Source: Eledone cirrhosa
Taxonomy: Eukaryota
Length of the DNA: 64,000 nucleotides
Direction of reading: 5' to 3'
Assembly (NCBI GenBank): GCA_964016885.1
Contig: OZ024759.1
Location: 36,952,001-37,016,000 of the forward strand
This document shows, in pieces, positions 12,192-12,322 of this stretch (within the stretch, counting starts at the first letter, position 1; every line of letters begins with the position of its first letter). The position numbers and the translations under genes are program-made. The notes beneath the pieces were generated by a model. It was not told the DNA's origin. It saw only the letters and a program-made list of their open reading frames with translations, and searched no databases.

Positions 12192-12240
12192 GATTCCTGA
12201 TGATTTCTAATGAATGAAACAGTTCTAGTCCTGTAGAATC
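12192..12240 (+). ncRNA. Type I hammerhead ribozyme (family B element), intact core
   Basis: GATTC (stem I 5') - CTGATGA - T TTC taat GAA T (stem II) - GAA - ACAG ttctagtc CTGT (stem III) - A (cleavage site 12235, GUA triplet) - GAATC (stem I 3'). Confidence 0.8.
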
Positions 12241-12322
12241 TCATCTATATTAAAACTGTTATACTCTGCTATGTATTGAGTACCTTACTTACTGTGGTTA
12301 CCTCCGATTCAACCCGGAATAA
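12192..12322 (+). mobile_element. Family B element, solo copy
   Basis: HHR plus ~80 bp tail ending CCTCCGATTCAACCCGGAATAA; inserted in (TA)n. Confidence 0.8.

Follow-up and report, generated by a model that had tools for sequence, protein, structure and literature searches.

Hammerhead ribozymes are a known feature of Penelope-like elements (PLEs), and the closest described relatives of the repeats reported here are the Hydra-clade PLEs (Craig et al. 2021, PMC8557442). The sections of that paper used here describe one open reading frame (ORF) bearing Hydra motifs, (TA)n targeting, a type I hammerhead in the pLTR, with a U.U pair in 14 of 25 families, an inverted 5′ copy and a one-sided tail, and call the function of the hammerhead in endonuclease-bearing PLEs unclear; the literature searched contained no biochemistry of the clade. 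The Poseidon element PAc of Anolis (Frangieh et al. 2024, PMC11167929), of another clade, has an AT-rich target and two internal starts of the reverse transcriptase (RT) that define its tails. Minimal hammerheads of metazoan PLEs (Cervera and de la Pena 2014, PMC4209133) occur in thousands, solo or opposed, derive from truncated PLEs and are expected to have low activity, and metazoan non-LTR retrozymes (PMC7229834; bioRxiv 10.64898/2026.07.22.740005) carry a type I motif, helix II of Amex2 having U.U at its base. Promoters in pLTRs, reviewed in PMC6765202, include a TATA-like one in PLEs (PMC3846280) and an internal, TATA-less one in Penelope (PMC2377424). Sense versus antisense templating was left open in PMC3846280, and recently active Penelope families are described from one octopus, hammerheads being unmentioned in the accessible part of that account (PMC13282606).

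The family analysed here, found in a 64,000-nt stretch of the Eledone cirrhosa genome (the window), shares the traits listed above with Hydra-clade PLEs. It differs from those of PMC8557442 in its length (~5 kb versus <3 kb), its tail (~70 nt versus 30–40 nt) and its ~20,000 arms, and its hammerhead and protein, compared by eye, are unlike those of Hydra-1_Obim. With PAc it shares two tail-defining internal RT starts, the AT-rich target and an apparently uncut RNA template. Unlike the PAc hammerhead, which overlaps the ORF start, that of the family is placed at the predicted 5′ end of the RNA, the ATG following 180 nt further on, and run-off copies with a cap-type G are not reported for PAc in the accessible part of PMC11167929. 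In the minimal motifs of PMC4209133 helix II is long, with G10.1-C11.1, and helix III is slight or absent, whereas helix II here has 3 bp with U.U and helix III has 4 bp. One tandem array of the family resembles retrozymes, but the window copies are dispersed inverted pairs or singles and pieces of a coding element, not head-to-tail non-coding tandems.

PLE hammerheads, the U.U pair, (TA)n targeting, inverted arms, tails and pLTR promoters are therefore not claimed as new; they are already known. The literature searched held no description of the family, which may be named in Dfam, Repbase or the PMC13282606 library, outside that search. Nor did it yield, for PLEs, the cap-type G and run-off class, the long/short arm rule of inverted pairs, a start at stem I behind a TATA box with its excess over the cut site (279 versus 16), or a tail hairpin and a microsatellite 3′ UTR. 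With intact copies that are nearly identical and some 20,000 insertion ends, the debated role of the hammerhead would become testable at defined coordinates: start +1, predicted cut +44, putative RT starts near +66 and +135, and hairpin +72 to +90, where +1 is the G at 12192 and the predicted RNA start is the preceding base.

Parent element and copies in the window

The window repeats are almost certainly the pLTR, comprising hammerhead and tail, of a Penelope-like retrotransposon that is young, very abundant and apparently of the Hydra clade. Identity between the 12192 copy and the start of the intact elements L067, L068 and L069 is complete (131/131), and a separate non-autonomous family, one of two options offered in the earlier note, is therefore unsupported; the other option, 5′ truncation, stands. 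The tail runs into an ORF in two of the first 30 genome matches. A search with the first 137 residues of this ORF gave scores at 150 places, in many of which the open frame spans 758 codons, and 15 of 20 such places fetched gave a 713-residue protein with mutual identity of 97.3–99.6%. The link to PLEs that had been suggested is borne out by these long copies, in which the hammerhead is joined to an RT ORF (15 ORFs of 713 aa).

An intact copy (~5 kb) is composed of a hammerhead, the tail, an ATG at +181, the ORF, a 3′ UTR and a second hammerhead. The 3′ UTR measures 2.5–3.4 kb and is 59–71% TA/TG-alternating in six of six intact copies measured. Insertion into (TA)n, pLTRs, an inverted 5′ copy and a one-sided tail are all present, as in the Hydra clade; the exception is length, generally under 3 kb in that clade, which at ~5 kb is accounted for by the microsatellite 3′ UTR and, since the paper says ‘generally’, is taken as a variant trait. 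In L067 (5921-8399) and five other intact copies the 3′ UTR holds ~2 kb of (TA)n/(TG)n, the element’s own target, and may feed the microsatellite load of the genome. A GIY-YIG ORF upstream of L026 was considered as the element’s end and rejected, as intact copies end otherwise.

The protein is a single ORF with a telomerase-like RT (YRDD at 347) and carries the Hydra motifs RWR (38), DKT (116), CxCX5C (566), CxxC (666) and CxH (694); CX2-5CxxC is absent from it. The clade is diagnosed by RWK, DKT, the CxCX5C linker, CxxC and CxH, a C-terminal GIY-YIG endonuclease that lacks CCHH, and the absence of CX2-5CxxC (PMC8557442, section 11). The predicted model has a pLDDT of 89.9, and its top eight Foldseek hits are telomerase RTs (TERTs). 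After the linker is an IVY...YIG motif, seen by eye; GIY-YIG is recognised by this motif only, PF01541 being found on one homolog, and Pfam and PDB sequence searches gave no match naming the protein or its GIY-YIG domain. We assign the element to the Hydra clade on these motifs and the predicted fold, published reference proteins having been compared by eye.

All ten loci named in the earlier note belong to this one family and lie inside or adjoin (TA)n/(TG)n. A complete hammerhead had been ascribed to the family as a whole; the descriptor scan finds one at five loci (6939, 12192, 18715, 52037 and 59200), and the core is incomplete in the arms at 3104, 21932, 43902, 51615 and 58479. Most loci are head-to-head inverted pairs, a point missed before. 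At 6934–7129 a long minus arm with the complete motif is paired with a short plus arm with the core CUGGUGA, and at 18715–18906 a long minus arm with a short plus arm. Minus arms are short and plus arms long at 43901–44108, where both begin within the core, and at 52034–52228, where the plus arm has the complete motif. The pair at 21929–22013 is heavily truncated and lacks CUGAUGA, and that at 59201–59410 belongs to the GGCTTC/GAAGCC subfamily. The remainder are a single long minus arm of the GAAGCC subfamily without the first core bases (3104–3228; descriptor scan), a fragment with the 3′ part of the motif on the minus strand and a few tail bases but no core (51613–51660), and a plus-strand tail fragment preceded by a few inverted core bases (58479–58542).

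The hammerhead motif

The predicted type I hammerhead of the 12192 copy occupies 12192–12240 on the plus strand, as seen in the sequence, the descriptor scan and pair counts. Stem I (12192-96/12236-40) encloses the core CUGAUGA (12197-203), a 3-bp stem II with a tetraloop (12205-07/12212-14), GAA (12216-18) and a 4-bp stem III with an 8-nt loop (12219-22/12231-34), with U10.1 at 12204 and U11.1 at 12215. This is the layout proposed earlier, in which cleavage is predicted to follow A12235 and positions 10.1 and 11.1 are each occupied by U. The family has the core CUGANGA, GAAA, UH, three stems and an open stem I, the layout of type I. Five hammerhead arms are found in the window by the descriptor scan, against 0–1 per shuffle in 20 shuffles. 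Genome copies were counted by exact sequence patterns, and the core pattern has 19,860 exact matches across the 3.0-Gb genome, its reversed control none. Within the hammerhead (12200–12236) are three upstream ATGs, which would be lost along with the cap if cleavage occurred after 12235.

Compensatory changes had been claimed for all three stems. A tally of 162 distinct arms from family loci upholds this for stem I, which covaries between subfamilies at two pairs (A-T in 80 arms versus G-C in 37, and A-T in 93 versus C-G in 45), a pattern that reflects a few master lineages, not numerous independent events. For stems II and III the claim fails, because both are near-invariant and ACGG arms seldom have the partner change. 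Stem II is an invariant 3-bp TTC/GAA, its invariance being partly built in since the search patterns fixed part of it. The alternation TTCT/AGAA versus TTCC/GGAA is not borne out, the fourth pair being T-A in 49 of the 162 arms and C-G in one; the tetraloop is unconstrained, in line with the free variation of loop II described before. The stem III pair is A-T in 156 arms and G-C in one, the sole ACGG/CCGT arm, at the 59200 locus, where the sister arm has an A.C mismatch. Genome-wide there are 264 ACGG arms, with the CCGT partner in two among 100 listed. ACGG/CCGT is therefore not a subfamily, and CpG decay of such a subfamily was dropped as an explanation, since none was found.

The U.U pair, presented in the earlier note as atypical, is already tabulated for 14 of 25 published Hydra-clade families (File S2 of PMC8557442, hand count). 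The axolotl HHR_Amex2 has it and cleaves in vitro, weakly as a monomer and better as a dimer (PMC7229834). A first scan of related metagenome loci gave no match, and an alignment-based scan gave 78 loci; 59 metagenome rows, from which motifs with <6 nt in stem III had been removed beforehand, collapsed to 28 non-redundant hammerheads adjoining related ORFs, and 12 of these have U.U. The hammerhead of the family, U.U pair included, is ordinary for the Hydra clade. Its loop III is 8 nt, and the distance from GAAA to UH is 14 nt versus 6–8 nt in the 28 related motifs.

Model searches and folding did not single out the motif. Rfam gave zero matches at E up to 10 for window positions 12180–12480, and for the whole window the best 150 of 745 matches were microsatellite-driven miRNA matches only. 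Energy folding lends no support, the hammerhead fold not being that of minimum energy and having a probability of 0.0004–0.03 in eight variants; folding z-scores range from -1.3 to +1.2. The hammerhead is rather more likely than not to be catalytically active in some form, and is probably a weak or protein-assisted cutter.

Copy ends and their template

The ends sampled lie for the most part in the initial 81 Mb of one contig (first matches) and in 464 kb around the window. Short copies begin at the first base of stem I, frequently after an untemplated G. In the 12192 copy this 5′ end is at 12192 on the plus strand, one base inside the predicted transcription start, which in long copies lies 29–30 nt behind TATAAATA. 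Among 48 tail-anchored copies, 19 begin at -1 to +9, 15 at +10 to +94, three at -100 to -2 and 11 further upstream, a pile-up at stem I with p of about 1e-14 against a uniform distribution; three of the 48 begin at +43 to +46. Adding five upstream bases to the pattern reduces the genome matches from 12,346 to 5,204, a drop to which upstream subfamily differences contribute and which tandem arrays distort (3,680 forward versus 1,524 reverse). Of starts joined to (TA)n, 279 lie at the predicted start and 16 around the predicted cut site, and an internal control has 28. The predicted cut site is not where copy ends gather, and the ratio of 279 to 16 implies that the templates of short copies were mostly uncut.

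Upstream of stem I, 48 of 53 promoter-bearing arms have a TATA box that begins 29–30 nt ahead of its first base, and this spacing is kept across subfamilies with different spacers; outside this genome it is weak (4 of 25 Hydra-type loci, p about 0.04, the spacing interval being chosen post hoc). None of 31 distinct tail-to-ORF contexts has its start precisely at stem I. A promoter was assigned to 18, among them L041, which in fact starts 6 nt upstream, and the rest comprise two with a mutated TATA box, one starting about 5 nt upstream and ten unmatched by the core motif. In the sequencing data X4, contig depth rises from 57 to 11,468 across the predicted start and drops to 8 after the tail; contig depth is not copy number, X4 may be the source sample, and this observation was not counted.

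At position -1 the base is C in 51 of 53 long arms. Among TA-joined arms, G stands there in 33 of 52 for subfamily A (hand count, 100 listed of 279) and in 42 of 68 for subfamily B (hand count, 100 listed of 103, with 16 ambiguous CAGG rows dropped beforehand), and about a quarter of the listed TA-joined rows begin at +1 without the extra G. In a scripted tally only 22 of 52 short arms have G, and for many of these the inverted arm accounts for it. Since an RT may append C wherever it runs off, the extra G marks an RNA end, not strictly a cap. Untemplated G at the full-length 5′ ends of L1 and SVA is accepted as reverse transcription of the cap (PMC4859970).

A splice acceptor or an RT pause, in place of a transcription start, is an unlikely source of the pile-up. 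Subfamily A has a T-rich...CCCAG sequence before stem I, and the intron of Drosophila virilis Penelope ends at helix I (PMC4209133, PMC2377424), but no upstream exon is common to the junctions. Subfamily B, which is without an AG acceptor because C precedes GGCTTC, nevertheless has the same pile-up and G, and the TATA spacing is maintained though the spacer sequence differs.

At the other end, arms stop at two places. Within 464 kb around the window, 3′ ends lie at about +66 in 17 of 38 arms and about +135 in 19, and each of the 12 head-to-head pairs combines a long arm with a short one. In the 12192 copy the spacer to the short end, one of two inferred RT start sites, is at 12241–12257 (plus strand), and the tail to the long end is at 12258–12326 (plus strand), continuing to the ATG at +181 in intact copies. 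About 6 nt beyond the short end is an inverted repeat, ACTC-N11-GAGT (12263–12281, plus strand), replaced by GCTC/GAGC in other Hydra-type elements: GCTC-N8..17-GAGC occurs 52–86 nt past the cut site in 22 of the 28 related loci, and not once in the downstream control. ACTC...GAGT in this family and in a second family of the window is a double change preserving pairing. The words ‘hairpin’ and ‘stem-loop’ are absent from the main text of PMC8557442. The tail hairpin may serve as a recognition site for the RT or the endonuclease, and could act as DNA.

These arms could also be read as copies of an independent non-autonomous unit of ~130 bp, retrozyme- or SINE-like, whose RNA is defined by hammerhead cleavage and which moves in trans; this is quite improbable. 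ORF copies are far fewer than short copies, and a 12-unit tandem array with units of ~1.08 kb holds promoter, hammerhead and tail, as proposed for retrozymes (bioRxiv 10.64898/2026.07.22.740005). Against this, the short copy matches the start of intact elements base for base, ends do not coincide with the cut site (16 versus 279), and short copies have neither a promoter nor a shared flank; RNA could still be supplied in trans by copies that have the promoter but no ORF, which is compatible with the explanation we favour. Poorest of all are the prospects of self-priming on an antisense template, the rotifer Penelope model (PMC3846280), since it matches the short palindromes usual at head-to-head junctions here too but leaves unexplained the untemplated sense-strand G at a TATA-spaced site and the long and short arms of 12 of 12 pairs, and since PAc uses sense RNA with two internal starts (PMC11167929).

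The short copies are likely to be run-off cDNAs whose template was a sense RNA, capped and uncut, with priming at two internal positions. From a TATA promoter within the pLTR, Pol II would begin transcription at the first base of stem I. On the strength of Hydra-clade and Anolis data, the element protein would nick both strands of a (TA)n tract and prime at about +66 and +135, sites that would flank the conserved tail hairpin. Each cDNA would then traverse the uncut hammerhead, run off at the cap and add a C, seen as the untemplated G, and two cDNAs would join head to head, giving the long and short arms observed. Two internal RT starts and an uncut template have been shown for PAc (PMC11167929), and the two 3′ ends of the family match the two PAc starts.

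While short-copy ends point to capped, uncut sense RNA, long copies point to a template crossing the start site. Because they cross it, the long ORF-bearing copies may, with less assurance, be derived from read-through or circular RNA. The hammerhead would act on this long-copy route, as proposed for a read-through or circular RNA (PMC4209133), and not on short-copy ends. More speculatively, a hammerhead at +1 could be a fate switch: uncut capped RNA would be the mRNA and give strong-stop-like short copies, and cutting in both pLTRs would remove the cap and let the unit circularise and template full-length partial tandems. In the same tentative scheme, the clade-wide RCTC/GAGY hairpin would be the landing site setting both RT starts, and the ~2 kb of the element’s own (TA)n target would seed new targets during spread.

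Neighbouring repeats

Often sharing a (TA)n tract with the family is a second Hydra-type family, with a tail at 12343-12486 and further copies at 3304, 15662, 20564, 44120, 50761, 52336, 56724, 59025 and 59901. It carries the 3′ half of a hammerhead, with a longer stem III and a 9-nt loop, and an ACTC/GAGT hairpin, and runs into another KNIPIP ORF in L081. An older sister subfamily of the first family (L081, L082, L083 and L084; about 70% amino-acid identity over 137 residues) retains the TATA spacing, a hammerhead with a CUGAAGA core and the hairpin. At 24239-24424 is a distant Hydra-type remnant whose identity with the element protein is 37% across 62 residues.

In the retrozyme-like array of L187-L188 (G000:C1:83674000-83693999), twelve units of 1,027-1,113 bp follow one another head to tail, and all of them carry a promoter, a hammerhead, a tail and a microsatellite; the forward-strand excess (3,680 versus 1,524) suggests larger arrays elsewhere. 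Just past the 21932 locus, at ~22098-22131, lies a minimal hammerhead-like motif of another family (CUGAAGA, a GGGC/GCCC stem and GAAAC), and at least eight further hammerhead motif families occur (L024, L036, L074, L078, L083, L098, L101, L118, L135 and L140). RT and GIY-YIG pieces of another PLE family (L032:6348-6845 and L034:601-1911) lie beside or inside the 3′ UTR microsatellite of the family. The window also contains homogeneous minisatellites at 34074-35649 (period 80), 5697-6099 (period 102) and 19715-20473 (period 14).
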